Shown: piece by piece, positions 11,638 to 46,645 of the stretch | Numbering within the stretch: the stretch's first letter is position 1 | Layout: each line of letters opens with the position of its first letter | Source of the DNA: Flavobacteriaceae bacterium | GTDB lineage: Bacteria; Bacteroidota; Bacteroidia; Flavobacteriales; Flavobacteriaceae | Reading direction: 5' to 3' | Assembly: GCA_036478895.1 (NCBI GenBank) | Contig: JAZGEV010000011.1 | Coordinates: 25,836-89,835, forward strand | DNA: 64,000 bases | Made by a program: the position numbers and the translations under genes | Notes under the pieces: generated by a model | Told to the model about the DNA's origin: nothing | The model's database searches: none | Seen by the model: the letters and a program-made list of their open reading frames with translations, nothing else

Positions 11638-13203
11638 TTAAGAATTTAACATTTTTACAGCTAATTCTTTACCTAATTCTACACCAAATTGATCAAAACT
11701 ATATATGTTCCAAAGAATGCCTTGCGTAAATGTTTTTTGCTCATAAAAAGCAATTAATGCACCCAAATTTTTTGGTGTTAAATTACTGAATAATAAGGTT
11801 GTAGAAGGTTTGTTACCATCAAATATTTTAAACGGTAATAATTGATTAATTTTAGCGCTTTGTCCTTTCGTTTTAAGTTCCAAATGAACGTCTGCAGCCG
11901 TTTTTCCAAAAGCTAACGCATCGGCTTGAGCGTAAAAATTTGCCATTAATTTTTTATGATGATCTGTATTGCCATAAAGCGATTTTTCAAAACCAATAAA
12001 CTCTACTGGAATCAGTTTTGTACCTTGATGAATTAATTGCATAAAGGCATGTTGCATATTGGTTCCTGTACTTCCCCAAATAACATTACCTGTTTGGTAG
12101 GTAATTTTATCGCCATTTCTATCCACACTTTTACCATTACTTTCCATCGATAATTGTTGTAAAAAAGGTGGTAAATTTTCAAGATATTGTGAGTATGGCA
12201 ATACGGCTTCACTCTCTGCATTGTAAAAATTATTATACCAAATACTAATTAGGGCGGATAATACTGGTGCGTTTTTATGAAATGGTGTTGTTCTATAATG
12301 CACATCCATTTCATTAGCGCCTTCTAATAATTCTTTAAATTTAGAAAATCCTATGCTTAAAGAAATACTTAAACCAACAGCCGACCATAAAGAAAATCGT
12401 CCACCAACCCAGTTCCACATTGTAAAAATATTATTTGGATCTATACCAAAGGCACTTACTTTTTCTAAATTAGTTGAAACTGCAACAAAATTGTGTTTAA
12501 TATCTTTTGGCTTGGCATTTTGTAAAAACCATTGCTGAATTGTTGTTGCATTGGTTAAGGTTTCTTGTGTGGTAAAAGTTTTAGAAACAATAACAAACAG
12601 AGTTGTTTCTGGATTAATTTTTTTTAATACTTCTTGTACATGATCGCCATCAATATTAGAAACAAAATGCGTGTTTAAATGATTTTTGTAATACTGCAAA
12701 GATTCTACAACTACACGTGGTCCCAAATCCGATCCACCTATGCCAGTATTTACAATATCTGTAAATGCCTTGCCTGTAAAACCTTTTCTTTTACCGGATA
12801 TTACTTCGTCTGAAAAAGCTTTCATTTTTTTCAAACTGTCTTGTATTGAAGGTATTACATTTTCACCAGAAACGTTTATTTTTTTAGATGTAAAATCTCG
12901 TAAAGCTGTATGTAATACGGCTCTTTCTTCGGTTTCATTAATTATTTCTCCAGTAAATTGCTTTTCAATAGCATCTTTTAAATCACAGTCTTTTGCTAAA
13001 TTACATAATAAATCTATTGTTTCTTTTGTAATTAGATTTTTTGAATAATCAATAGATAAATCATTGGTTTGTATTGTGAAATCTTGCTTCCTTTGCGCAT
13101 CATTAAAAGCATTTTTTAAAGAAAAATTTTGCATTTCATTGACATGGTTTTGCAAGTTTTTCCAAGATTTTGTTGAGGTAGGATTGATTTTTTTTAATGA
13201 CAT
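11638..13203 (-). CDS. pgi: Glucose-6-phosphate isomerase
   Basis: 521 aa with GIGGSDLGP, the SKTFTTQET-type motif and a GVELGK C-terminal region typical of PGI. Confidence 0.95.
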   Translation of the reverse strand: MSLKKINPTSTKSWKNLQNHVNEMQNFSLKNAFNDAQRKQDFTIQTNDLSIDYSKNLITKETIDLLCNLAKDCDLKDAIEKQFTGEIINETEERAVLHTALRDFTSKKINVSGENVIPSIQDSLKKMKAFSDEVISGKRKGFTGKAFTDIVNTGIGGSDLGPRVVVESLQYYKNHLNTHFVSNIDGDHVQEVLKKINPETTLFVIVSKTFTTQETLTNATTIQQWFLQNAKPKDIKHNFVAVSTNLEKVSAFGIDPNNIFTMWNWVGGRFSLWSAVGLSISLSIGFSKFKELLEGANEMDVHYRTTPFHKNAPVLSALISIWYNNFYNAESEAVLPYSQYLENLPPFLQQLSMESNGKSVDRNGDKITYQTGNVIWGSTGTNMQHAFMQLIHQGTKLIPVEFIGFEKSLYGNTDHHKKLMANFYAQADALAFGKTAADVHLELKTKGQSAKINQLLPFKIFDGNKPSTTLLFSNLTPKNLGALIAFYEQKTFTQGILWNIYSFDQFGVELGKELAVKMLNS

Positions 13204-13205
13204 TA

Positions 13206-14477
13206 TTAAGATTTAATAGGTGTTTCTAATGTGTCTAATACTATTTCTATTTGTTCCATAGGATATTGAATACTATCCAATTGAGATTTAATTGGGATGA
13301 TAAACTCTTTAAATAACGGAACTACATCTTTTTTCATTGGATCTGCCGATGGGAGTTTTTGTTTAAACGGATCTACTTCTTTTCCGTTTTTCCAAAAACG
13401 ATAACAAACGTGTGGTCCTGCAGTACTTCCTGTCATGCCAATCCAACCAATAACATCGCCTTGTTTTACAAAATCGCCTACTTTTACTTTACGTTTTTTC
13501 ATATGTAAATATTGCGTAGAATACGTGCCATTGTGTTTAATTTTTACATAATTTCCGTTGCCACCTCTGTAAGCCGATTTAGTTACTGTTCCGTTTGCAG
13601 TACTAACAATTGGTGTGCCAATTGGAGATGGAAAATCTGTGCCTCGATGTGCTTTTACACGATTACCATAATGTTTTATACGGCGTTTTAAATTATAACG
13701 AGACGAGACTCTGCTACTAAATTTTAAAGGTGCTTTTAAAAATGCACGACGTAAATTATTAGTTTGATCATCATAAAACTCTGGAATATTTTTGGTAGAA
13801 TCAACCACATATCTAAAACCATAAAATGGCTTTTTCTTATGTTCAAAATATGCTGCTTTAATATTTCCAATACCTACCGATACACTATCATCTATAAAGC
13901 GTTCTTCGTAAATTACTTTATATTTATCGCCTTTACTTAAATGATAAAAGTCAATAGTCCAAGCATAAATATCAGATAAGGCAAACGTAAGATTGTAATT
14001 AACACCTTGCGCTTCAATAGCGTTTGATAATGACGAGTCTATAATGCCTGATGCTGTTTTTATAACCGTTTTAACTGGCTTTTTACCAATATAAGCCTTT
14101 TCTTTATTGTTTAAATCTAAAACTAAATACTCAACTTTATTTGGTTGATATATAAATACTTGTGCTTTTTCAGTTGAATCTTTTGATGCAAGTATTGTGT
14201 AACGTTTACCAACGCGTAAATTACGTGCAATGTCAAAAGTGTTTTTTGAATTTGCAACAATTTTATTTATAGTTGGGTTTTCTACGTGATGCTTGTCCAT
14301 TAAATAACCAAAGGTTTCGTCTTTTTTTACGATGCTTTCAATCACTTTATAATCATTGAAAACATAACCAAATTTCTTGACTATCACAGGTTTTTTCTCA
14401 ATTACTGGTATTGGTTTTACTTCTTTTTTACAAGAAATGGCTAAAATAGTAAGTGTAATGAGAAGTAAGTTTTTCAC
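13206..14477 (-). CDS. M23 family metallopeptidase
   Basis: HRGTDFPSPIGTPIV...GNYVKIKH...YLHM...GSTAGPHVCYRF (HxxxD and HxH-like M23 motifs). N-terminal signal anchor. Confidence 0.85.
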   Translation of the reverse strand: MKNLLLITLTILAISCKKEVKPIPVIEKKPVIVKKFGYVFNDYKVIESIVKKDETFGYLMDKHHVENPTINKIVANSKNTFDIARNLRVGKRYTILASKDSTEKAQVFIYQPNKVEYLVLDLNNKEKAYIGKKPVKTVIKTASGIIDSSLSNAIEAQGVNYNLTFALSDIYAWTIDFYHLSKGDKYKVIYEERFIDDSVSVGIGNIKAAYFEHKKKPFYGFRYVVDSTKNIPEFYDDQTNNLRRAFLKAPLKFSSRVSSRYNLKRRIKHYGNRVKAHRGTDFPSPIGTPIVSTANGTVTKSAYRGGNGNYVKIKHNGTYSTQYLHMKKRKVKVGDFVKQGDVIGWIGMTGSTAGPHVCYRFWKNGKEVDPFKQKLPSADPMKKDVVPLFKEFIIPIKSQLDSIQYPMEQIEIVLDTLETPIKS

Positions 14478-14553
14478 GATAAAATTTGGTCTTTGGGTTA
14501 AGTGCCAAAATTAGCAAATTTTTAGGTGAGGTTATTATAAAAAAGTCTTAAAA

Positions 14554-15321
14554 TTATTTTAAGCTTGTAGCGTTTGCTAAGCCTGTATATTTATACAAAT
14601 CTGCTCTTAAAGAACCAACCGATAATGATGCTTTAATACGCAATGGAATTTTATTATCATCATCACTTACCCAAACAGTAACACTTTCTTTTTCTTTAAA
14701 AACACGACCAGATGCAACTAAAGGGCGAAATTTAGCCGCTTTAATAGTTCCAAATTTAGTATTTATGGTTTCTCTACCTAAAAAACGTAATTTCATATGC
14801 ATGGTTTCTTGATCTAAAAATATAGGTAATTCCAATTCATCCCCTTTTTTAAAATTACTAATATCTTGATTTCTCATAAAATACAAAGCTGATAATAAGT
14901 CTTGAACTTCGCCAGTAGTTTTAAACGTTTTACGTGATTTTTTTTCATTATCTACTACAACTGCTTTTTTAGTATCTTGGTCAAATAATATTTCTTTATC
15001 TTTAGTGTATCCACCTTCATTTATTTGTCTGATAAAGCGATAAGGTAAAAAAGTGTCTTTATAAAAAAAGGTTTCATAATTGTCACGCACTTTAAAAAAC
15101 CAATTAATCATACCTGTCGTTTTTCCTTTTCCAACTACATGAAATGCTTCTTTCCCTTTGTTATAAGCGCCTTTAACTTCCATTGTTGCATAGCCAGCCG
15201 TTAAAAAGTTACTATAACTCAAACGGAATTTTAAATTCTCTCCTTCTTTAAATGCTAATTTTTCTTGTGAAAAAGATGCAAAAGAAAGCCATAAACTTAG
15301 GATAAATATTATTTTTTTCAT
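14554..15321 (-). CDS. DUF3108-like secreted protein
   Basis: Start moved to MKKIIFILSLW (signal peptide). The AFKEGENLKFRLSYSNFLTAGYATMEV pattern resembles DUF3108, recalled from memory. Confidence 0.45.
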   Translation of the reverse strand: MKKIIFILSLWLSFASFSQEKLAFKEGENLKFRLSYSNFLTAGYATMEVKGAYNKGKEAFHVVGKGKTTGMINWFFKVRDNYETFFYKDTFLPYRFIRQINEGGYTKDKEILFDQDTKKAVVVDNEKKSRKTFKTTGEVQDLLSALYFMRNQDISNFKKGDELELPIFLDQETMHMKLRFLGRETINTKFGTIKAAKFRPLVASGRVFKEKESVTVWVSDDDNKIPLRIKASLSVGSLRADLYKYTGLANATSLK

Positions 15322-15449
15322 GTGATTGTCGTTCTTTGTTAAGATGAAGGTATTGTTGTTATAGTATCTTAAAATCAAATATTGTTCCAATTTTTAAAAA
15401 GGAATCCCAAATGTAGTCAATTTTAATTTTAGGTTTGTATTTTTGAACA

Positions 15450-16040
15450 ATGGATGACTTTTTATTTTATACCCAACAAGGGTTTACACATGTGCTTGAT
15501 AAAAACGCATTAGATCATATTTTGTTTTTTATAGCTTTAGTCGTTGTTTTTAGTTTTAAAGATTGGAAAAAAGCGCTTTGGTTAATAACATTTTTCACTT
15601 TAGGACACAGCGTTACCTTTGGTTTATCATCTTATGGATATATTGATTTAAACGTTGATTTAATTGAGTTTATAATTCCTATTACCATTTTAATTCCGCT
15701 TATATATAACAGCTATTATGCTTATAAAAAATCGGATAAAAAGAAAAATAATCGCAACATTTATTTTTCTTTTTTCTTTGGGTTATTTCACGGCTTAGGC
15801 TTTTCTAGTTATTTTAGAATATTGGATGTGGACAATAAACTAGTTCCATTAATGACATTTTCTTTAGGTATTGAATTGGCGCAAATAGTTGTTGTTTTAG
15901 CAACACTTACTTTAGGTTATATTTTACAATCTCTTGTCTTTAAGAATATTAAAAACATAAAGAATGTCTGGACTCTTGGAGTTTCGGGAATTGTATTTGT
16001 AATTATTATACCTATGTTAGTTTCTAGATGGCCGTTTTAA
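15450..16040 (+). CDS. HupE/UreJ family membrane protein
   Basis: Multi-TM with LDHILFFIALV, TLGHSVTF, LFHGLGFSS and GIELAQ motifs. Paralog at 61756-62439. Confidence 0.7.
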   Translation: MDDFLFYTQQGFTHVLDKNALDHILFFIALVVVFSFKDWKKALWLITFFTLGHSVTFGLSSYGYIDLNVDLIEFIIPITILIPLIYNSYYAYKKSDKKKNNRNIYFSFFFGLFHGLGFSSYFRILDVDNKLVPLMTFSLGIELAQIVVVLATLTLGYILQSLVFKNIKNIKNVWTLGVSGIVFVIIIPMLVSRWPF

Positions 16041-16047
16041 CCAATCT

Positions 16048-16099
16048 CGATCTAAAATCGGGATAAGTGAAACTAGCCGTATTTTGTGCGTTTCGAAAA
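16048..16099. repeat. 5' half of a long-hairpin element (52 bp identical to 16369-16420)
   Basis: CGATCTAAAATCGGGATAAGTGAAACTAGCCGTATTTTGTGCGTTTCGAAAA matches copy B exactly. Confidence 0.9.
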
Positions 16100-16138
16100 T
16101 GAAATAGTGTAAGCTCATATTTTTAATTAATTTATACT

Positions 16139-16204
16139 GTCATTCCTGCGAAAGCAGGAATCCATATTATAATTCTATTAAATTCCTACTTTCGCAGGAA
16201 TGAT
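16139..16204. repeat. Inverted pair of GTCATTCC..GGAAT REP-like hairpins
   Basis: GTCATTCCTGCGAAAGCAGGAATCCA (16139-16164) and ATTCCTACTTTCGCAGGAATGAT (16182-16204). Confidence 0.8.
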
Positions 16205-16286
16205 ATTTTGTTTAATTACAGTTTCTACAAATAGTGTTATTTTCTTTAAAAATAATCTCTTTTATATAATTGTAAGTTTGCCTTGT

Positions 16287-16310
16287 AAAACGAAACTTCA
16301 AAATACGGCG
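16287..16310. repeat. 3' half of the long-hairpin element (24 bp identical to 16417-16440)
   Basis: AAAACGAAACTTCAAAATACGGCG is an exact match to copy B. Confidence 0.9.
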
Positions 16311-16368
16311 AATTGGCTTGATAAATGAAAGTTATAGTAAAAAACAAATGTGTTTTAATTAATGATCC

Positions 16369-16446
16369 CGATCTAAAATCGGGATAAGTGAAACTAGCCG
16401 TATTTTGTGCGTTTCGAAAACGAAACTTCAAAATACGGCGTTTCAC
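16369..16446. repeat. Intact long-hairpin element
   Basis: CCCGAT-CTAAA-ATCGGG mini-hairpin, then GTGAAAC-ta-GCCGTATTTTG-tgc-GTTTCG-AAAA-CGAAAC-tt-CAAAATACGGC-GTTTCAC (about 24 paired bp). Confidence 0.85.
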
Positions 16447-16481: not shown

Positions 16482-19400
16482 TTGAAGAAATTTAAAAACA
16501 TAGAATCAAAATTAAATGCTTTTATTAAAAAGTTTTATACCAATGAACTTATAAAAGGGCTTATCCTATTCTTTGCTTTTGGTTTACTCTATTTTATCTT
16601 AACTTTATTTATTGAATATTTTTTGTGGTTAAAACCCACAGCAAGAACACTTCTTTTTTGGACATTTATACTCATTGAAATTGGATTATTAACTAAATTT
16701 ATTCTTTTTCCTTTAGTGAAACTTTTTGGGTTACAAAAAGGAATTTCATACAAAGATGCTTCAAAAATTATTGGAAAACATTTTAATGAAGTTGATGATA
16801 AACTGCTTAATGTGTTGCAATTGAATGATGCAGAAAATCCATCGGACTTATTATTAGCAAGTATTGAACAGAAATCTGTTGATCTAAATCCTATTCCTTT
16901 TAAACAAGCAATAAACTTTAGTAAAAATAAAAAATATTTAAAGTACTTAGCTATTCCTTTAATTATATGGATGATTACATTCTTAACCGGAAACGATTAT
17001 ATTTTTAAAGATAGCTTAAATAGAGTTGTAAATTATCAAACTGCTTACACGCCACCAGCTCCATTTTCATTTGAAGTTGTCACTAAAAATTTAAAGTCGA
17101 TTGAAGGTAAACCGTTCACAATAAATGTAAAAACAAAAGGCAATACAACTCCCGAAAATGTTAAAATTCATTTTAATGATACCCAATATTATTTAAAAGA
17201 AACAGATTTAGCAGCATTCTCTCATACTTTTTCAAATCTTAACGAAAACACAACATTTTATCTTGAAGCTAATGGTATTAAATCAAAAGATTTTACCATA
17301 GAAATAATCAAAACGCCTAGTATTTTAAATTTTTCTATGTTTCTTAATTATCCTAAGTATACACAAAAAACGGATGAAAAAATTACCAATACAGGAAATG
17401 CAATTGTTCCAGAAGGCACAACGGTCACTTGGAAAGTAAACACAAAAAACACCACTCATATTAATCTATTAAATGTAACAGATAGTGCTACTTTTAAGCT
17501 AAAAAGCCTTAATAATTATCAGAATTATTCACTATCAAAACGTTTAAGTACTAATTTAGATTATATTATTAAAACATCTAACAATCAATTAAAAAACTTT
17601 GAAAACTTAAGCTATGGTATTCAAGTTATAAAAGATGAATATCCAAACTTAATCATTAAAACCGATATCGATAGTATTGCACGAGGAAAAGCACAATTCA
17701 TTGGTCAAATTACCGATGATTACGGTATAAAAAATCTTTCATTGGTATATTACGATAAAGAAAATAAATCAAACACACAGCAATTTCCAATTTCGGTAAA
17801 AAACACCACTTTTCAAGAATTCTATTATGTTTTTCCTAATGGTTTAAATTTAAATAAAGGCGTTAATTATGAATTCTATTTTCAATTATTTGATAATGAT
17901 GCAATCAATGGAAATAAATCTATAAAAAGTAAAATTTTTAAGTATCGCAACAAAACTGATAATGAACTAGATGAAGATTTATTAAAAGAACAAAAACAAA
18001 CTTTAGAGGAATTAAATAAAACGACAAAAAAATCAGAAAAACTCAATAAGTCTTTAGAAGATTTCTCTAAAAAGATGAAAAATAAAGCGTCAATGGATTG
18101 GCAAGATAAAAAAGAACTTAAGCAATTTGTAAAGCGTCAAGAACAATATCAAGAAATACTACAAAAAAACACTGAAAAATTACAACAAAATATTGACGAA
18201 TTAAAAGATGAAAATAACCCTAATTTAAAACAAAGAAAAGAAGATCTTAAAAAGCGTTTAGAAGAAATAAAGGAAATGCAAAAAAAAGAAAAGCTTTTGG
18301 ATGAAATAAAAAAAATAGCTGATAAAATAGATAAAGAAAAATTTATAGAAAAGCTTGATAAATTAACACAAAAGAATAAACAAAAAGAAAAATCATTAGA
18401 ACGTATTTTAGAACTTACAAAACGTTTTTATGTCGAAAAAAAGGCTGAAGAAATTAAAAACAAACTGTTAGACTTAGCTAAAAAACAAGAGGAGTTAGCT
18501 AAAGATAAAGACAATTCAGCTAAAAAACAAAAGGCGTTAAATAAGGAATTTGAAGCTTTAAAGAAAGAAATGGCTGAGCTTCAAAAAGAAAATAAAATGC
18601 TTAAAAAACCAATGGATATTCCAAAAAAATCTGCCGAAGAAAAAGCCATTGATAAGGATATGAAAAAAGCCGAAGAGAAATTGGAAGAAAGTGAAAATAA
18701 GCCAAATGAAGAAGGAGAAGAGAGTAAAGGAGATGCTAAAAAGAAACAGAAAGCAGCTGCCAAAAAAATGAAAAAAATGAGTGGCGAAATGGAAGCTGCA
18801 ATGGCTATGGGCGGCGGAGGCGAAATGATGGAAGAAGATATTGATAATATACGTGCTATTATAGATAATTTAATCATTTTTTCATTAAAACAAGAGGCAT
18901 TAATGAACGCTTTTGAAATTGTGAATTCATCGCATCCAGAATTTGGTAAAAAACTAAAACTACAACATGTGCTTAAAGAACATTTTGAACATATTGATGA
19001 TAGTATTTATGCTTTAGCACTTCGTAATCCAAAAATATCTGAAAAAATAAATGAAGACATTACAGAAGCACATTATAATATTAATCAATCTCTAGAAAAT
19101 ATTGCAGAAAACAAAATACGTCAAGGTGTAAGTAATCAACAAACTACCATGATGGCTGCCAATAATTTGGCTGATTATTTTAGCGATGTGTTGGATAATG
19201 AACAAAACCCTAAAAGCGGAAAAGGACAAGGAAAAGGAAAGGGAAAAGGAAAAGGAAAAGGGAAAGGAAAAGGTGATGGTTTCAGTTTACCAGATATAAT
19301 TAAAAAACAAGGTGAGATGATGAAGAAAGGACAAGAAAAAGGGAAAAAAGGAGATAAAGGGAAGAAAGGTGAAGATGGAAAAAAAGGGGAAAATGGCAAG

Positions 19401-19889
19401 AAAGGAGACAAAGGGAAAAAGGGAAAAGATGGTAAAAAACCTGGAGATGGAAAAGGCGAAGGGCAAGAACAAATGAGTGGTGAACAATACGAAATATACA
19501 AACAACAAAATGCTTTAAAAGAAGCTTTTAAAGACATTATGGGTAAGGCTGGAAACAACGGAAAAGCTGGTAATAAAGCCTTAAAACAAATGGAAGATCT
19601 AGAAAAACAACTCTTAGATAAAGGCATTACGCAATCCGTTTTAAAGAAAATGGAAAACTTAAAACACGAATTGTTAAAACTTGAAAAAGCTAATTTTGAA
19701 CAAGGTGAAGACAATAAACGTAAAGCCGATACCAATAAAAATAGCTTCGAAAAACGAAATATAAAAGAACTTAAATCAAAAAAATTATTTTTTAATCCCA
19801 ATGAAATCTTAAACCGTCAACCATTGCCATTAAAAACAATCTATAAAAAGAAAGTACAAGAGTATTTTTCTACTAAAAAAGCGAGTTAA
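16482..19889 (+). CDS. Large membrane-anchored K/E-rich coiled-coil protein (DUF4175-like)
   Basis: TTG start. N-terminal TM helices, a beta-rich middle, several hundred residues of K/E coiled coil, and GK and KGxxGKK low-complexity tracts. Its stop overlaps the ybeY start. Confidence 0.6.
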   Translation: MKKFKNIESKLNAFIKKFYTNELIKGLILFFAFGLLYFILTLFIEYFLWLKPTARTLLFWTFILIEIGLLTKFILFPLVKLFGLQKGISYKDASKIIGKHFNEVDDKLLNVLQLNDAENPSDLLLASIEQKSVDLNPIPFKQAINFSKNKKYLKYLAIPLIIWMITFLTGNDYIFKDSLNRVVNYQTAYTPPAPFSFEVVTKNLKSIEGKPFTINVKTKGNTTPENVKIHFNDTQYYLKETDLAAFSHTFSNLNENTTFYLEANGIKSKDFTIEIIKTPSILNFSMFLNYPKYTQKTDEKITNTGNAIVPEGTTVTWKVNTKNTTHINLLNVTDSATFKLKSLNNYQNYSLSKRLSTNLDYIIKTSNNQLKNFENLSYGIQVIKDEYPNLIIKTDIDSIARGKAQFIGQITDDYGIKNLSLVYYDKENKSNTQQFPISVKNTTFQEFYYVFPNGLNLNKGVNYEFYFQLFDNDAINGNKSIKSKIFKYRNKTDNELDEDLLKEQKQTLEELNKTTKKSEKLNKSLEDFSKKMKNKASMDWQDKKELKQFVKRQEQYQEILQKNTEKLQQNIDELKDENNPNLKQRKEDLKKRLEEIKEMQKKEKLLDEIKKIADKIDKEKFIEKLDKLTQKNKQKEKSLERILELTKRFYVEKKAEEIKNKLLDLAKKQEELAKDKDNSAKKQKALNKEFEALKKEMAELQKENKMLKKPMDIPKKSAEEKAIDKDMKKAEEKLEESENKPNEEGEESKGDAKKKQKAAAKKMKKMSGEMEAAMAMGGGGEMMEEDIDNIRAIIDNLIIFSLKQEALMNAFEIVNSSHPEFGKKLKLQHVLKEHFEHIDDSIYALALRNPKISEKINEDITEAHYNINQSLENIAENKIRQGVSNQQTTMMAANNLADYFSDVLDNEQNPKSGKGQGKGKGKGKGKGKGKGDGFSLPDIIKKQGEMMKKGQEKGKKGDKGKKGEDGKKGENGKKGDKGKKGKDGKKPGDGKGEGQEQMSGEQYEIYKQQNALKEAFKDIMGKAGNNGKAGNKALKQMEDLEKQLLDKGITQSVLKKMENLKHELLKLEKANFEQGEDNKRKADTNKNSFEKRNIKELKSKKLFFNPNEILNRQPLPLKTIYKKKVQEYFSTKKAS
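19218..19274 (+). repeat. Hexanucleotide (GGAAAR)n tract encoding a (GK)n run
   Basis: GGAAAAGGACAAGGAAAAGGAAAGGGAAAAGGAAAAGGAAAAGGGAAAGGAAAAGGT encodes GKGQGKGKGKGKGKGKGKG. Confidence 0.9.
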
Positions 19890-20305
19890 TGATCTATTAC
19901 AACTACGAAACTGAATTTAAACTCAATGATGAAAAAGGGATATCGCAATGGATAACAAACACCATCCAAGAAGAAAACTGTACTTTAGAAGAGGTGTCGT
20001 ACATTTTTTGCGATGATGCTTATTTACTAGAAAAAAACATTAAATACCTGAATCACAATACATTAACTGATATTATTAGCTTTGATTATTCGGTTGGCAA
20101 GACGATATCTGGCGATATTTTCATTTCAATTGAACGTGTGACTGAAAATGCTAAAACCTATAATGTATCGTTTAAAGATGAACTACAGCGTGTAATTATT
20201 CATGGAATTTTACATTATTGTGGTTATAAAGATAAAAATGAAAGTGATAAAAAAGAAATGCGCAAAAAAGAAAATTATTATCTTAACATATTACTAGAAT
20301 CATAA
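19889..20305 (+). CDS. ybeY: rRNA maturation endoribonuclease YbeY
   Basis: 138 aa with the HGILHYCGYKD zinc motif (HGxLHxxGY). Confidence 0.9.
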   Translation: MIYYNYETEFKLNDEKGISQWITNTIQEENCTLEEVSYIFCDDAYLLEKNIKYLNHNTLTDIISFDYSVGKTISGDIFISIERVTENAKTYNVSFKDELQRVIIHGILHYCGYKDKNESDKKEMRKKENYYLNILLES

Positions 20306-20388: not shown

Positions 20389-20404
20389 GGTTTCACGTGA
20401 AACA
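20389..20404. promoter_or_regulatory. parS (ParB/Spo0J binding site), 15/16 match to consensus
   Basis: GGTTTCACGTGAAACA versus TGTTNCACGTGAAACA. Lies 36 bp upstream of mnmG. Confidence 0.8.
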
Positions 20405-20439
20405 TAAATCCTTTTAACTTTTTTAAGAATTTATAAAAG

Positions 20440-22314
20440 ATGAGCATATTTCAAACAAATTACGATGTAATAGTAGTTGGTGGTGGACACGCAGGAAGTG
20501 AAGCTTCTGCAGGTGCTGCAAATATGGGCGCCAAAACCTTGCTCATCACAAAAAGTCTACAAAATATTGCTCAAATGAGTTGCAATCCAGCAATGGGAGG
20601 CATTGCAAAAGGGCAAATTGTGCGTGAAATAGATGCGCTTGGTGGTTATAGTGGCATCATTACCGACAAAACTGCCATACAATTTAAAATGCTAAATAAA
20701 TCCAAAGGTCCTGCAATGTGGTCTCCTAGAGCACAAAGTGATCGAATGCGTTTTGCAGAAGCTTGGCGTTGGCAATTGGAAAACACAGAAAATTTAGATT
20801 TATACGAAGATAGTGTTAATGGATTACTTTTTGAAAATGAAAAAATTATTGGTATTAAAACTGTTTTAGGTTTAGAAATAAAAGCAAAAACTGTCATTAT
20901 TACTGCAGGAACTTTTCTTAATGGACTCATACATATTGGTGATAAAACTTTTGGTGGTGGACGAGCTGGTGAAAGTGCAACTACAGGAATTACTGAAGAT
21001 TTAGTAAAAAAAGGGTTTGAATCTGGCAGAATGAAAACAGGAACACCACCACGAGTGGATGCAAGATCATTGGATTTTTCAAAAATGATTGAACAACCTG
21101 GAGATGAAAATCCACTAAAATTTTCTTATTTACAATCCATAAAACCTTTAACAAAACAACGTTCTTGTTATATGACGTATACTAGTAAAGAAGTACACGA
21201 TTTATTACGCGAAGGTTTTGATCGTTCTCCCATGTTTAATGGTAGAATACAAAGTATTGGTCCACGTTATTGTCCAAGTATAGAAGATAAAATAGATAGA
21301 TTTGCAAGTAAAGAACGTCATCAAATGTTTATTGAACCAGAAGGTTGGTTTACAAACGAAATATATGTTAATGGTTTTTCTACATCGCTACCAGAAGATG
21401 TGCAAGCAAAAGCATTGCGGCAAGTTGCTGGATTTGAAAATGTAAAATTCTTTAGATTTGGCTATGCTATTGAATATGATTACTTTCCTCCAACACAATT
21501 AAAGTATACCTTAGAAACAAAACTTATAGAAAATTTATACTTTGCTGGACAAATAAACGGCACAACAGGTTACGAAGAAGCAGCCGCACAAGGCTTAATG
21601 GCCGGAATAAATGCTGCTTTAAAAACACAAGAACGTGAGCCATTTATTTTAAATAGAGACGAAGCTTACATAGGTGTTTTGATTGATGATCTTATCACAA
21701 AAGGAACAGAAGAGCCGTACAGGATGTTTACTTCTAGGGCGGAATTTAGAACCTTATTAAGACAAGATAATGCAGATATAAGACTTACTGCAAAATCAAA
21801 TAAAATAGGTTTGGCTTCAGATTTACGACTACAAAGAGTAGAAGAGAAGGTTTCTAAAACAAATCAATTTTTGAAATTTCTAAAACAAACAAGTATTAAA
21901 CCCAACGAGATAAATCCTATTTTAGAATCAAAAAAATCAGCTTTGGTTAATCAATCTATGAAGATGTATAAATTAGCATCAAGGCCTCAACTAGATTTTA
22001 CCGATGTGGCAAAATTTAAAAAAGTTGACGAATTTATAAAGGAACAAAACATAGATATAGAAATTATAGAACAAACCGAAGTGCAAGTAAAATATGCTGG
22101 CTATATTGAAAAAGATATTGCCAATGCAAAAAAATTACAACGTTTAGAAAATGTAAAAATTCCAAGAGATTTTAATTACAAAGACATAAACATTTCAACG
22201 GAAGCTAAACAAAAACTAACAAAAATACAACCAGAAACAATATCTCAAGCAAGTCGCATTTCAGGTGTTTCTCCAAGTGATATTTCTGTAATGCTTGTTT
22301 ATTTGGGAGTTTAA
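20440..22314 (+). CDS. mnmG: tRNA uridine 5-carboxymethylaminomethyl modification enzyme MnmG (GidA)
   Basis: YDVIVVGGGHAGSEAS FAD motif, MSCNPAMGGIAKG and GPRYCPSIEDK. 624 aa. Confidence 0.97.
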   Translation: MSIFQTNYDVIVVGGGHAGSEASAGAANMGAKTLLITKSLQNIAQMSCNPAMGGIAKGQIVREIDALGGYSGIITDKTAIQFKMLNKSKGPAMWSPRAQSDRMRFAEAWRWQLENTENLDLYEDSVNGLLFENEKIIGIKTVLGLEIKAKTVIITAGTFLNGLIHIGDKTFGGGRAGESATTGITEDLVKKGFESGRMKTGTPPRVDARSLDFSKMIEQPGDENPLKFSYLQSIKPLTKQRSCYMTYTSKEVHDLLREGFDRSPMFNGRIQSIGPRYCPSIEDKIDRFASKERHQMFIEPEGWFTNEIYVNGFSTSLPEDVQAKALRQVAGFENVKFFRFGYAIEYDYFPPTQLKYTLETKLIENLYFAGQINGTTGYEEAAAQGLMAGINAALKTQEREPFILNRDEAYIGVLIDDLITKGTEEPYRMFTSRAEFRTLLRQDNADIRLTAKSNKIGLASDLRLQRVEEKVSKTNQFLKFLKQTSIKPNEINPILESKKSALVNQSMKMYKLASRPQLDFTDVAKFKKVDEFIKEQNIDIEIIEQTEVQVKYAGYIEKDIANAKKLQRLENVKIPRDFNYKDINISTEAKQKLTKIQPETISQASRISGVSPSDISVMLVYLGV

Positions 22315-22320
22315 AGTAAA

Positions 22321-22336
22321 TGTTCCACGTGAAACA
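22321..22336. promoter_or_regulatory. parS site, exact match to the consensus TGTTNCACGTGAAACA
   Basis: TGTTCCACGTGAAACA, 7 bp after the mnmG stop. Confidence 0.85.
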
Positions 22337-22392
22337 TATTTTTTACATTACTACCTCAACAAGCTAAACTAACAACATAATTGAAAATAATA

Positions 22393-23286
22393 ATGAAAAA
22401 CGAACTACCTATTTTAGAATGTATTGACCATACTGTTTCACGTGAAACATTTAAACTAATACATGAAGTAGAAACAGATATGTTGGTTACCAATCCTCAA
22501 CCAAAGATTGAAGAATTAGAAAAATATTATGAAAGTAATGATTATATTTCTCACACAGATTCTGATAAAACATTACTTGATAGAGTCTATCAAAGTGCAA
22601 AAAAATATACTGTAAAAAGAAAAATAAAATTACTTAAAAAAATTATTAAAAATAAAAAAGAATTACAAATTTTAGATATTGGTGCTGGAACTGGAGATTT
22701 TTTAAATGCGTGTAAAAATGAAAATTGGAAAGTTGTAGGCGTAGAGCCAAATAAAAAAGCACGTGTTTTAGCAAAATCAAAACTGGGTATTTTAAAACCA
22801 AACACTTTAACTTATAATGATTTTGATCCTAAAATTTATGATTCCTTAAATGACATTGAAACTAATACAAAATTTGATATTATAACATTATGGCATGTAT
22901 TAGAGCACGTTCCAGATCTTGAAAACTATATTAAAAAATTACAAAATCTATTAATGGAACATGGTACTTTAATTATTGCTGTGCCAAATTATAAAAGTTA
23001 CGATGCAAAACATTATGGTAAATTTTGGGCTGCTTATGATGTGCCAAGACATCTTTGGCATTTTTCAAAAAAAACAATTACGTATTTATTTAATAAAGAA
23101 AACATGGTTGTCACTAAAACACTTCCAATGAAACTAGATTCTTATTATGTGAGTCTGCTTTCAGAAAAATATAAAACGGGGAAAAGCAACCCAGTTAAAG
23201 CTTTTTTTATAGGATTACTATCAAATTTAAAAGCCATCCGTACAAAAGAGTATTCTTCACTAATATATTTAATTAAAAACAAGTAA
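22393..23286 (+). CDS. Class I SAM-dependent methyltransferase
   Basis: ILDIGAGTGDFLNAC motif I and ITLWHVLEHVPD. ATG at 22393 preferred over the TTG at 22381. Confidence 0.8.
   Translation: MKNELPILECIDHTVSRETFKLIHEVETDMLVTNPQPKIEELEKYYESNDYISHTDSDKTLLDRVYQSAKKYTVKRKIKLLKKIIKNKKELQILDIGAGTGDFLNACKNENWKVVGVEPNKKARVLAKSKLGILKPNTLTYNDFDPKIYDSLNDIETNTKFDIITLWHVLEHVPDLENYIKKLQNLLMEHGTLIIAVPNYKSYDAKHYGKFWAAYDVPRHLWHFSKKTITYLFNKENMVVTKTLPMKLDSYYVSLLSEKYKTGKSNPVKAFFIGLLSNLKAIRTKEYSSLIYLIKNK
22434..22449. promoter_or_regulatory. parS site, perfect 16-bp palindrome, inside the methyltransferase CDS
   Basis: TGTTTCACGTGAAACA encodes ..TVSRETF.. Confidence 0.85.
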
Positions 23287-23523: not shown

Positions 23524-24249
23524 ATGGAAAAAACAAGAATTAATAAATTTTTAAGTGAAGCTGGTTATTGTTCTCGAAGAGCAGCAGATAAATTAATTGA
23601 AGCACGACGTGTTACCATAAATGGTAAAGTTCCAGAAATGGGAACAAAAGTAACTGCTAATGATGAGGTACATGTTGATGGAAAACTTATTACAAAAAAT
23701 AATGATGAACTTGTATATATTGCATTTAACAAACCTGTAGGAATTGTTTGTACTACAGACACGCGAGTGGAAGAAGATAATATAATAGATTATATAAATT
23801 ATCACAAACGTATTTTTCCTATTGGGCGATTAGATAAACCAAGTGAAGGTTTAATTTTTTTAACTAACGATGGTGATATTGTAAATAAAATCTTACGAGC
23901 ACGTAACAATCACGAAAAAGAATATTTGGTCACCGTTAATAAAAGTATATCTACTGAGTTTATAAAAAAAATGAGTGCTGGTGTGGAAATTTTGGATACA
24001 ATAACACGCAATTGTTATGTAGAGCAAGTCAATCAAAAAACATTTAAAATTATACTTACACAAGGTTTAAACCGTCAAATACGCCGTATGTGTGAAGCTT
24101 TAGATTATAGGGTTAGAACTTTACAAAGAACTCGTATTATGAATATTTCGCTCGATGTGCCTGTTGGAGAATGGCGTGATATTACCAAAGAAGAGTTGAT
24201 AGAAATTAATAAAATGGTTGAAAATTCTGCTAAAACTTATGATAAATAA
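23524..24249 (+). CDS. rluF: 23S rRNA pseudouridine synthase, RluF-like (RsuA/RluB/E/F family)
   Basis: N-terminal S4 domain ([21 protein letters not shown]) and the catalytic [18 protein letters not shown] motif. Confidence 0.75.
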
Positions 24250-25285: not shown

Positions 25286-25795
25286 ATGACTACAAAAACA
25301 TCCAAAGAATCGCTTACAATATTAACCGATATGGTTTTACCAGGTGAAACAAATGCCTTAAATAACCTTTTTGGAGGTGAAATTTTAGCACGTATGGATC
25401 GCGCATCTAGCATATCGGCTCAACGACATTCTAGAAGAATTGTGGTTACTGCATCGGTAAATCATGTGGCTTTTACAAAGGCAGTTCCTGTTGGTTCTGT
25501 GGTTACAATAGAATCAAAAGTGTCACGTGCTTTCAACAGTTCTATGGAGATTTTTGTTGATGTTTGGATTGAAGATAGAGAATCTCAAGAACGGACAAAA
25601 GTAAACGAAGGAATTTATACGTTTGTAGCTGTAGATCGTACTGGATCTCCCGTAAAAGTGCCACAAATAAAACCAGAAACAGCCTTAGAAAAAGAGCGTT
25701 ATGAAGGTGCTTTACGAAGAAAACAATTGAGTTTATTACTATCAGGTAAAATAAAACCTAGTGAAGCTACAGAGCTGAAAGCCTTATTTGAATAA
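25286..25795 (+). CDS. Acyl-CoA thioesterase (hotdog fold, YciA-like)
   Basis: VLPGETNALNNLFGGEILARMD...VVTASV...VGSVVTIESKV is typical of the family. Confidence 0.8.
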   Translation: MTTKTSKESLTILTDMVLPGETNALNNLFGGEILARMDRASSISAQRHSRRIVVTASVNHVAFTKAVPVGSVVTIESKVSRAFNSSMEIFVDVWIEDRESQERTKVNEGIYTFVAVDRTGSPVKVPQIKPETALEKERYEGALRRKQLSLLLSGKIKPSEATELKALFE

Positions 25796-31807: not shown

Positions 31808-34087
31808 TTATTCAGAAATAAGCCAAAAATCAAGGTGTTTACGTTCTAAATCGGTTTTCTTAACCTTAACAGTTACCTCATCACCAAGTGTGTATTTATT
31901 TTGAGTGGCTTGTCCAACAATTGCGAATTGTTTTTCATCAAAGGTATAAAAATCATCTTTTATATCGTTTAAACGCACCATGCCTTCACATTTATTTTCG
32001 ATAATCTCTACATAAATTCCCCATTCGGTTACACCAGTAATTACACCAGTAAATTCTTCATTATTATGGTCTTGCATATACTTTACTTGCATATACTTAA
32101 TTGATGCACGCTCAGCTTTGGTTGCTAAATATTCTCGCTCTGATGAATGTTTACATTTTTCTTCATAGTCTTTTTGATTTGGTGTATTTCCACCATCCAA
32201 ATAATGTTGTAATAAACGATGTGTCATAACATCGGGATAACGTCTAATTGGTGACGTAAAATGACTATAATAGTCAAATGCTAATCCGTAATGACCAATA
32301 TTATCCGTTGTATAAACAGCTTTACTCATAGAGCGAATTGACAAGGTTTCAATCATATTTTGCTCTGCTTTTCCTTTTACATCGGTCAATAATTTATTGA
32401 TGGATTGTGTGGTGTCTTTTCGAGAATTGGTATTGATTTTATACCCAAATTTTCCTATAACACGTTGTAAATCTTCTAATTTTGAAGCGTCTGGCTGATC
32501 GTGAATTCGGTACACAAATGTTTTTTTGGTTGGTGTTCCGTTTTTATTTCTTCCAATAAATTCAGCTACTTTTCGGTTTGCTAAAAGCATAAATTCTTCA
32601 ATTAATTTATTAGCATCTTTGGATTCTTTAAAGTAAACGCCTGTTGGATTAAAATTGTCATCTAAATTAAAACGCACCTCAACACGATCAAACGATAATG
32701 CGCCAGTATCCATACGTCTTCTACGTAAAATTTTAGCTAATTTATCCATTTTTAAGGTGGCAAAAGCAAGCTCTGGTGTGGTGTTATATTCTTTATCCGT
32801 TAAGGAAATATCCGCAGGAATTGTGAGGTTTAATTTGTTCTCGACTCCGCTCGAACTGACATTGTTATTCTTAGAACTTGGGTCAATAAAATTATTATTT
32901 TCTAAGATAACTTGTGCTTCTTCATAAGCAAAACGAGCATCAGAATAAATAATTGTTCTCCCAAACCATTCGTTTAAAATGTGGGCTTTTTCATCCAGTT
33001 CAAAAACGGCAGAAAAGGTTAGTTTTTCTTCGTTTGGTCTTAGAGAACAGACGTTGTTTGATAAAACTTCGGGCAACATTGGCACCACGCGATCTACCAA
33101 GTAAACCGATGTTGCTCTATTGTACGCTTCTTCTTCCAAAATAGTACCTTCTTGTACGTAATGACTTACATCGGCAATGTGGATTCCTATTTCATAGTTC
33201 CCATTTTCTAAGATTCTAAATGATAAGGCATCATCAAAATCTTTGGCTGTTTTGGGATCTATTGTAAAAGTTAATATGTCTCTAAAATCGCGTCTTTTAG
33301 CAATTTCTGTTTCGGTAATTTTAATAGGTAATTTAGCAGCATCTTTTTCTACTTTTTCTGGAAATTCATAGGGTAAATTATATTCCAATAATATAGAGTG
33401 AATCTCTGTATTATGATCGCCTGGCATACCTAAAACCTTGGTTATTTTTCCAAACGGATTTTTTGAATTTTCGGGCCAATCTGTTAAAGATACCAATACT
33501 TTTTCACCGTCTTTTGCGCCATTCATATGTTTCATTGCAACAAACAAATCGGCATACATTTTTTTATCATCGGGTATTACAAAACCAAAATTTTTGTTCA
33601 TTTGTAAAACACCTACATAGTCGGTTTTTTCTCTTTCAATAATTTCTACAATATCGCCTTCGGTTTTTTTATTTTTTCGTCTACTATAGACATAAACTTT
33701 TACCGTATCGTGATGTAATGCATGATTCATATTCCTTGACGGGATGTAAATATCTTGCTCTAAATCATCGCAAATTACATACGCACCGCCACGAGAAGTA
33801 ACATCTACTTTTCCAACATAATAATTGTCTGCTGCTACTATTTGAAACTTACCACGCTCTTTTTCTTCTATCTTTTTTTCGATACTTAGCGTTGCTAATT
33901 CCCGAACTACTTGATTTTTACCATCGGGATTATCCAATTCCAACTGGCTGGCAATTTGTTTGTAATTGTAACTTTCTTTTGGGTTTTTATTTAACACGTC
34001 AAGTATTTTACGTGATAAATGTTTTATTTTATTTCCTGCTTTTTTCTTTTTGAAATTTTGCTGGAATTTCTTTTTTCCTTTACTCAT
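31808..34087 (-). CDS. rnr: Ribonuclease R
   Basis: K-rich N-terminus, cold-shock-like domains, RNB core (TIDPKTAKDFDDALS, HYGLAFDYYSHFTSPIRRYPD) and a C-terminal S1 domain. Confidence 0.95.
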   Translation of the reverse strand: MSKGKKKFQQNFKKKKAGNKIKHLSRKILDVLNKNPKESYNYKQIASQLELDNPDGKNQVVRELATLSIEKKIEEKERGKFQIVAADNYYVGKVDVTSRGGAYVICDDLEQDIYIPSRNMNHALHHDTVKVYVYSRRKNKKTEGDIVEIIEREKTDYVGVLQMNKNFGFVIPDDKKMYADLFVAMKHMNGAKDGEKVLVSLTDWPENSKNPFGKITKVLGMPGDHNTEIHSILLEYNLPYEFPEKVEKDAAKLPIKITETEIAKRRDFRDILTFTIDPKTAKDFDDALSFRILENGNYEIGIHIADVSHYVQEGTILEEEAYNRATSVYLVDRVVPMLPEVLSNNVCSLRPNEEKLTFSAVFELDEKAHILNEWFGRTIIYSDARFAYEEAQVILENNNFIDPSSKNNNVSSSGVENKLNLTIPADISLTDKEYNTTPELAFATLKMDKLAKILRRRRMDTGALSFDRVEVRFNLDDNFNPTGVYFKESKDANKLIEEFMLLANRKVAEFIGRNKNGTPTKKTFVYRIHDQPDASKLEDLQRVIGKFGYKINTNSRKDTTQSINKLLTDVKGKAEQNMIETLSIRSMSKAVYTTDNIGHYGLAFDYYSHFTSPIRRYPDVMTHRLLQHYLDGGNTPNQKDYEEKCKHSSEREYLATKAERASIKYMQVKYMQDHNNEEFTGVITGVTEWGIYVEIIENKCEGMVRLNDIKDDFYTFDEKQFAIVGQATQNKYTLGDEVTVKVKKTDLERKHLDFWLISE
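32840..32861. repeat. 22-bp intergenic-type repeat unit embedded in frame in rnr
   Basis: CTCGACTCCGCTCGAACTGACA is 20/22 identical to 35988-36009. Its reverse complement begins with the 13-mer at 35911-35923. Encodes VSSSGVE. Confidence 0.7.
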
Positions 34088-34309: not shown

Positions 34310-34744
34310 ATGAAAACAATAGCCATTGCCAACGATCACGCTGGACCTGAATACAAATTTGAAATTGTTAAATATCTTGAATCTCAAAATTATAAAGTGC
34401 TTAATTTTGGTACAGATACTAATGATAGTATGGATTATCCTGATACTATTCACTTAGCTGCCAAAGCTGTAGCTGATAAAAAAGCCGATCTAGGCATCAT
34501 TATTTGTGGCTCTGGAAATGGCGCTCAAATGACGGCAAATAAACACCAAGATGTTAGAGCTGCTTTGTGTTGGAATAACGAATTGGTTGAATTATCTCGT
34601 TTACATAATGATGCTAATGTACTTAGTATTCCTGCACGTTTTGTGAGTAAACAACAGGCACTTGGTTTTGTTAAACTGTTTTTAGAAACAGAATTTGAAG
34701 GTGGAAGGCACGCCACTAGAGTTGATAAAATTAGATGCTGTTAA
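34310..34744 (+). CDS. rpiB: Ribose 5-phosphate isomerase B
   Basis: IAIANDHAG...IICGSGNGAQMTANK...HNDANVLSIPARF. Confidence 0.92.
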   Translation: MKTIAIANDHAGPEYKFEIVKYLESQNYKVLNFGTDTNDSMDYPDTIHLAAKAVADKKADLGIIICGSGNGAQMTANKHQDVRAALCWNNELVELSRLHNDANVLSIPARFVSKQQALGFVKLFLETEFEGGRHATRVDKIRCC

Positions 34745-46085: not shown

Positions 46086-46094
46086 TCTTATTTT

Positions 46095-46136
46095 AATAGA
46101 GTAGAAAATTAATATTTTTAAGTTTTCTACTCTATT
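46095..46136 (+). terminator. recA terminator hairpin (14-bp stem)
   Basis: AATAGAGTAGAAAA-N14-TTTTCTACTCTATT, directly after the stop codon. Confidence 0.65.
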
Positions 46137-46645
46137 TATACTATTATTAAAGCTATTAACATTTTAAAATACAATTGTTAATTAACTTTTATAATAAATT
46201 AAAGAACAACTATTTATAAAAAAGACTAATTGTTAATAGTTTTATACTTTAAAAAGATAACTAAGTTTGGTTGTAAAAAATATAAATACAATAGAAAAAT
46301 ATAAATTTTAAATGCAAAAAAAACTATCTCTTTTTCAACACATGTTATTAACAATAAAAGTATAGTTTATTAATAAAAAATAAGAAAAAGATATTAAAAA
46401 TAAACAGTGAATAGGTTTATTAACATAATGTGAATAACCACAAAAGAACCATTCATTTTCAATTCATTAAATAATAAAAACGTGTTCATTTTTTTTAATA
46501 ACTCAAAAACACAAATTATTTAATATATTTTTATAGTACATATTAACAGACTATATAAGACATCATTTTTTTTAAATAATTTTAAAATAAAATAATATAT
46601 ATATAATAAATGTTGATAACATTAAATTAAAAAATAAAAAGGATT

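Follow-up and report, generated by a model that had tools for sequence, protein, structure and literature searches.

Where does a bacterium keep its chromosomal centromere, if not beside the genes of the proteins that bind it? This question is raised by a stretch of 64,000 nucleotides (nt) from an uncultured member of the Flavobacteriaceae (assembly GCA_036478895.1, contig JAZGEV010000011.1, positions 25,836 to 89,835 of the forward strand), which we call here the window. It encodes neither of the partition proteins ParA and ParB, and in it three short palindromes surround the tRNA-modification gene mnmG (gidA). These palindromes are, with high probability, chromosomal parS sites, i.e. the places where the DNA clamp ParB (Spo0J), driven by cytidine triphosphate (CTP), is loaded on the chromosome. 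As far as can be judged from sequence, the centromere in these bacteria is at mnmG rather than at parAB.

Three parS-type sites around mnmG

The coordinates and sequences of the three sites (Table 1) agree exactly with those proposed in the initial annotation, made from the letters of this DNA alone, and the string TTYCACGTGAAACAT that it had described as common to all of them is indeed shared. Site 1 starts 51 bp 5' of the mnmG ATG, within the 134-bp spacer between ybeY and mnmG, and its only mismatch to the parS consensus TGTTNCACGTGAAACA is at position 1. Site 2 is intergenic and starts 7 nt past the mnmG stop codon. The description of site 3 as a perfect palindrome inside the coding sequence (CDS) of a methyltransferase was equally accurate; it covers codons 14-19 (TVSRET). 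That the sites bracket mnmG was confirmed by the TIGR00136 match located between sites 1 and 2.

With TGTTNCACGTGAAACA as query and at most 2 mismatches, the complete window yielded these three sites only, which count as 6 strand matches against an expectation of 0.19, and none of 100 dinucleotide-preserving shuffles of the window attained 6 strand matches. When 3 mismatches were allowed, one extra weak match appeared at 25336. A repeat finder independently put the three sites in a single family, GTTYCACGTGAAACAT, whose members start 1932 and 113 bp apart, and the three are confined to 2.1 kb of the window. Three further assemblies of this species (L081-L083) have all of them intact.

The core CACGTG and the outer TGTT/AACA of the window sites are those of parS, whose idealised consensus TGTTTCAC-GTGAAACA is the form used experimentally (PMC7383237). 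Binding sites of the ParB relative Noc were also considered and rejected; the consensus of these Noc-binding sites (NBS), TATTTCCC-GGGAAATA (PMC7383237), is not matched by the window sites.

Sites flank mnmG in most related species

From relatives we collected 80 mnmG loci, each from a different species and extended by up to 10 kb to either side, scored them against the symmetric consensus TGTTNCACGTGNAACA and counted the sites found within 320 bp of the mnmG ends. There were 106 perfect sites in the 51 kb so defined, and 2 in the 1.48 Mb of farther flanks of the same 80 loci. Both flanks were available in 77 loci; with at most one mismatch 57 of them had mnmG flanked by sites on both sides and 72 carried at least one, figures that rose to 66 and 75 with at most two mismatches. 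The positions are also similar from one species to another: the commonest upstream site starts 16-31 bp before the mnmG ATG and the commonest downstream site 7-10 nt past the stop codon.

The both-sided arrangement is present in Flavobacteriaceae, in Weeksellaceae (Chryseobacterium, Kaistella) and in Crocinitomicaceae. One Roseivirga (Cytophagales) locus and one metagenome-assembled genome (MAG) of Chitinophagales have upstream sites only, and among the mnmG loci scanned no sites were found in a Capnocytophaga locus, one Flavobacteriales MAG and two Saprospiraceae loci. The pattern of sites flanking mnmG recurs in almost all related species, away from the partition-protein genes. Throughout the sample the 16-mer is nearly invariant except for a Y at position 5 and an R at position 12, and the bases that flank it are not conserved; the matrix was built from sites pre-selected at one mismatch or less and reveals variability by position, being no independent proof of the motif.

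Two peculiarities of the relatives deserve mention. Tandem arrays of 2-5 parS sites are found upstream of mnmG in several loci (L032, 3453-3601; L034, 9829-9936; L199, 9661-9950; also L071, L073, L065 and L052), in most of them at regular intervals of about 40-47 bp from start to start. A variant whose core is asymmetric, TGTTYCATGTGGAACA (equivalent to CACATG on the opposite strand), occurs in L005 (Tenacibaculum halocynthiae, 12044-12890), L021, L026, L050 and L199. Within those genomes it is seen in several of the copies near mnmG, which suggests a lineage-wide shift, or a tolerance, in ParB recognition.

Sites are absent near parB and dnaA

As control DNA we used 80 Flavobacterium parB loci (1.40 Mb) and 80 Flavobacteriaceae dnaA loci (1.54 Mb), 2.94 Mb in all. 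No site with one mismatch or less to TGTTNCACGTGAAACA was found within 10 kb of parB in the former, and neither such a site nor mnmG was found in the latter. Scored against TGTTNCACGTGNAACA, the complete control set gave 0 perfect sites and one site with one mismatch. Seen from the other side, no locus had the ParB Box II motif (GERRxRA) less than 10 kb from mnmG, and it was missing from the window, where tblastn searches with Flavobacterium ParA, ParB and DnaA gave no match. It follows that the parS sites gather at mnmG, with over 10 kb separating them from parAB and dnaA, a comparison in which the parB and dnaA scans sampled other genomes than the mnmG scan and no contig carried two of the markers.

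The sites as probable loading points for ParB

What protein would read these sites? In Flavobacterium, parA lies directly upstream of parB, and the ParB encoded there has the domains PF02195 (ParBc), PF17762 (HTH_ParB) and PF23552 (ParB_C). One of these proteins, P0004, aligns over some 200 residues with the solved structures of Myxococcus and Thermus ParB/Spo0J; its helix-turn-helix region reads GKKRSTIANYLRLLKL (GKKRSTIAN...), with GHGRA later. Compared with the Caulobacter crescentus ParB-parS co-crystal (Jalal et al. 2020, PMC7383237), Flavobacterium ParB appears to keep the equivalents of R173, N178, G201 and R204, with the numbering taken from the register of the motif. It differs at positions 179 and 184, which are Y and K, again numbered by motif and not by direct alignment. 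R173 and G201 are reported as wholly conserved among ParB proteins that bind parS and as changed in Noc (Jalal et al. 2020, PMC7383237). The retention of the Caulobacter residues leads us to predict the same DNA specificity for Flavobacterium ParB. ParB and sites flanking mnmG were found together in one genome in two cases, F. qiangtangense (L035, L142) and the MAG GL45_UP_16 (L032, L095).

If these bacteria follow established ParABS biology, ParB dimers would recognise each 16-bp palindrome, close as clamps and slide to the flanking DNA. The clamps loaded at the three sites would jointly form one partition complex over mnmG and its neighbours; ParA would segregate this complex, which would probably also load the structural maintenance of chromosomes (SMC) complex.

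Several observations weigh against this interpretation and have to be set beside it. No binding data were found in the searchable literature for any Bacteroidota ParB, and the ParB evidence above comes from relatives, the window encoding no ParB. Sites of the parS type usually lie near parAB, yet the 80 Flavobacterium genomes have none within 10 kb of parB, so that sequence specificity is the one thing that links the sites to ParB. Site 1 has a G and not a T at its position 1. Finally, site 3 overlaps a conserved peptide motif, and a look-alike produced by coding, TCTTCCACGTGAAACA (LPRET), exists elsewhere. Taking both sides together, we still regard the three palindromes as very probably chromosomal parS and ParB loading sites. 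The ParB-type parS identity given to them in the initial annotation is thus well supported by the match to the consensus, the non-random occurrence, a position kept in about 75 related species and the residues of the relatives' ParB.

Site 3 and the methyltransferase that hosts it

A methyltransferase gene is found close downstream of mnmG in 69 of the 80 related loci, directly adjacent in most of them, and the N-terminal motif of its product, D-[HYF]-x-V-S-x-E-x-F, is conserved. The codons GTT TCA nnn GAA of V-S-x-E already give most of a parS. One could then argue that site 3 is a mere by-product of coding for TVSRET and that the true set consists of two sites, the more so as the methyltransferase family conserves the motif at this very place and another conserved peptide, LPRET, yields a one-mismatch look-alike in other loci. 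The choice of codons offers no help for selection at the DNA level, because CGT is common (37% of Arg codons), and we have dropped that line of argument.

The distribution of the Arg itself is harder to reconcile with a by-product. It is rare at the x position of the motif, being found among the 69 homologues only in L006 (Lutimonas) and L007 (a MAG). DHTVSRETF is limited to these two loci and the window, and the same loci carry the DNA site there. In L006 and L007 the site within the methyltransferase is the sole downstream site and replaces the usual one past the mnmG stop codon, which the window retains as well. Moreover, all 16 bases of site 3 match, forming a perfect palindrome. We therefore consider a coding by-product improbable and read site 3 as a parS recruited into a permissive coding motif, with the second downstream site having presumably arisen in this lineage.

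Five loci (L016, 16998; L023, 17309; L028, 17422; L039, 17363; L068, 16334) have the conserved look-alike TCTTCCACGTGAAACA 6-7 kb downstream of mnmG. It lies within a CDS, where it encodes a conserved ...LPRETAGYVPAFLAT... motif, and is probably a non-functional coding coincidence, since it alters the otherwise invariant G at position 2.

As for the methyltransferase, this protein of 297 amino acids (aa) occupies the place that rsmG (gidB) has in other phyla. A PDB search with it retrieved generic class I methyltransferases only. One might speculate that it takes part in the mnm5U tRNA-modification pathway.

Regulatory and RNA-level explanations

The palindromes could also be imagined as operators of a dedicated transcription factor other than ParB, which would control mnmG and the downstream methyltransferase. 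A start 16-31 bp before the mnmG ATG, the usual one for the upstream site, is a typical operator position. The rest of the evidence speaks for parS: the 16-bp sequence is that of the pan-bacterial parS consensus, which goes beyond mere palindromy; sites also lie just past a stop codon, inside a CDS and in tandem arrays; no regulator gene is conserved beside the locus; and no promoter motif of the Bacteroidetes type adjoins the sites in the window. We consider dedicated operators highly improbable. Binding of ParB so near the start of mnmG may nevertheless have a regulatory side effect. Overlap of the sites with a promoter was looked for separately, and neither a sigma-70-type scan nor the Bacteroidetes -33/-7 motif gave anything informative at them.

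Action at the RNA level, with site 2 as the intrinsic terminator hairpin of mnmG and the other sites as stem-loops, is hardly credible. In its favour, site 2 starts 7 nt past the stop codon and TATTTTTT comes after it. Against it, folding predicts only weak hairpins (-3.7 to -4.7 kcal/mol) that do not surpass shuffles (z-scores of -0.6 to -1.3), a terminator scan calls nothing at any of the three sites, there is no Rfam match, and the upstream and CDS-internal copies follow no terminator logic. Identity as an intrinsic (Rho-independent) terminator was likewise rejected, the sites having no stable GC-rich hairpin with a U-run.

Does the window lie near the replication origin?

The sites had also been taken as marking the window as origin-proximal, and this part of the initial annotation did not stand up equally well: proximity is undemonstrated in a window that has no dnaA, parA, parB or DnaA-box cluster. 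Looking for the partition genes gave the same picture, as parA and parB are absent from the 64 kb and parB and dnaA of the relatives are more than 10 kb from mnmG. The switch in GC skew that was to be located is present as a sign change at about 16-18 kb, and it follows gene orientation: it coincides with two genes that diverge at 15.4 kb, and skew tracks orientation across the whole window. We discarded skew as an origin marker here, as in the window and, averaged over the relatives, in the 80 mnmG loci and the dnaA loci it mirrors gene orientation and conserved synteny.

An oriC within the window was rejected too: an inspection that took in the intergenic regions found no DnaA boxes (TTATCCACA-like) clustered together with an AT-rich unwinding element. 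DnaA boxes with at most one mismatch number 26 in the window, against 22 expected, and the largest cluster has 2 boxes in 400 bp. The most AT-rich spacer of the window (85% AT), 560 bp long and located after recA (46086-46645), has two DnaA-box-like sequences with one mismatch each, and is too weak to be called an origin.

The picture is different in some relatives. In Weeksellaceae (L057-L062, L066) the AT-rich spacer from pgk to rpiB-rnr contains 3-7 DnaA-box-like sequences (at most one mismatch), in clusters located 2.4-4.4 kb beyond the mnmG stop codon (e.g., L060, 14796-15249). In Roseivirga (L071, 14349-14665) about 310 bp contain 6 boxes, similarly far from mnmG, between a gene with immunoglobulin (Ig)-like domains and a tetratricopeptide repeat (TPR) gene. 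Against a background of about 0.14 boxes per 400 bp, these clusters are very unlikely to be due to chance. They are candidate oriC regions and suggest that mnmG and its parS adjoin oriC in Weeksellaceae and Roseivirga. The rnr-rpiB spacer of the window, syntenic with the candidate origin of Weeksellaceae, has no DnaA boxes, and no comparable cluster was found in any of the Flavobacteriaceae mnmG, parB or dnaA loci scanned.

In general, parS sites have been reported to lie near the origin (PMC7383237). For the genome of the window such proximity stays an expectation from general parS biology, backed by analogy with the clusters of Weeksellaceae and Roseivirga, because the window shows neither dnaA nor a box cluster, its skew follows the genes and the Flavobacteriaceae loci lack a cluster.

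Comparison with known partition systems

In Bacillus subtilis one parS lies inside the spo0J coding sequence, as site 3 lies inside a coding sequence here, and both in B. subtilis and in Caulobacter parS sites are found in or beside parAB. The arrangement described here departs from that of B. subtilis in having no site in or near parB, at least in the Flavobacterium loci and the 10 kb covered, and in having sites that tightly flank mnmG. At the level of the element itself there is no such difference, as the same 16-bp palindrome TGTTNCACGTGAAACA, in several copies, is that of the B. subtilis parS/Spo0J system (Lin and Grossman 1998) and of the pan-bacterial consensus (Livny et al. 2007), both as cited in PMC7383237.

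A second point of reference is the gidA(mnmG)-gidB-parA-parB origin cluster of Proteobacteria and Firmicutes. In Pseudomonas aeruginosa, for instance, a gidAB-parAB operon adjoins oriCII, and there too parS is located in or next to parAB (PMC13438810). The window resembles this cluster in that mnmG is tied to the partition system and is followed by a methyltransferase gene. It differs in three respects: parA and parB are outside the window, and in every relative examined over 10 kb separates them from mnmG, the methyltransferase belongs to Methyltransf_23 and has no match to the RsmG/GidB family, and there are no DnaA boxes upstream of mnmG in the window.

The sites themselves are hence canonical parS, an ordinary element, and it is the parS-mnmG-parS organisation, apart from parAB, that differs from the model systems. 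We did not find this arrangement described in the searchable literature; the survey of Livny et al. (2007) may already list such sites.

Gene order and other features of the window

The genes around the locus are listed in Table 1. GC makes up about 29% of the window. No species representative has a MnmG more than 79% identical to the one encoded here, the best matches being in Lutibacter, Wenyingzhuangia and Tenacibaculum, and this low identity leads us to assign the DNA to an unrepresented lineage of Flavobacteriaceae.

Table 1. Location of the parS-type sites and of the surrounding genes (coordinates of the 64,000-nt window; a dot marks elements without strand).
Feature	Position	Strand	Remarks
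parS site 1, GGTTTCACGTGAAACA	20389-20404	.	1 mismatch to TGTTNCACGTGAAACA
parS site 2, TGTTCCACGTGAAACA	22321-22336	.	0 mismatches to TGTTNCACGTGAAACA
parS site 3, TGTTTCACGTGAAACA	22434-22449	.	perfect palindrome; 0 mismatches to TGTTNCACGTGAAACA
mnmG (gidA)	20440-22314	+	TIGR00136, 836 bits (cut-off 525), E = 1.7e-251; PF01134, PF21680, PF13932
Class I S-adenosylmethionine (SAM)-dependent methyltransferase (Methyltransf_23)	22393-23286	+	PF13489; called start ATG 22393; hosts site 3
ybeY	19889-20305	+	upstream neighbour of mnmG
Genes for pgi, M23 peptidase, DUF3108	11638-15390	-	
HupE/UreJ-family gene	15450-16040	+	
Gene for 1135-aa protein, DUF4175 match	16482-19889	+	
rluF	23524-24249	+	
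rnr	31808-34087	-	12 kb downstream of mnmG
rpiB	34310-34744	+	12 kb downstream of mnmG

Two other regions of the window are rich in repeats. The spacer between the HupE/UreJ-family gene and the gene with the DUF4175 match (16044-16425) contains a 61-nt direct repeat, 97% identical (16044-16104 and 16365-16425), a 22-nt inverted repeat (16140-16161 and 16182-16203) and a 24-nt exact repeat (at 16287 and 16417). It measures 441 bp in the window and about 120 bp in the same-species assembly L082, a difference that suggests a duplication or an insertion of about 320 bp resembling a miniature inverted-repeat transposable element (MITE). The 3' part of the DUF4175-like gene (19209-19454) is made of degenerate repeats of 9-12 nt, which encode a low-complexity tail rich in Lys and Gly with weak matches to collagen-like adhesins.

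Implications for chromosome partition in Bacteroidota

The sites place a chromosome centromere, of a kind that gene callers miss, on a contig of an uncultured member of the Flavobacteriaceae. They also provide a simple rule for the location of the centromere in genomes and MAGs of Bacteroidota, namely both sides of mnmG, and show that the textbook linkage of parS with parAB fails in this group. For model organisms such as Flavobacterium johnsoniae, this is a precise target for chromatin immunoprecipitation sequencing (ChIP-seq) of ParB, for Hi-C and for fluorescent tagging. The DnaA-box clusters of Weeksellaceae and Roseivirga, in turn, hint at where the poorly defined origins of Bacteroidota might be sought.

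A wider proposal, which at present we hold to be rather unlikely, is that the parS sites flanking mnmG are the principal, and possibly the sole, chromosomal centromere across Flavobacteriales and other Bacteroidota, kept there in spite of parAB and dnaA being elsewhere and over divergence at the level of families and orders. If it were true, selection on the flanking arrangement itself would be implied. ParB clamps arriving from both sides might, for example, enclose mnmG, whose expression would then be coupled to the partition complex and its state. Another possibility is that mnmG transcription shapes the spreading of ParB.

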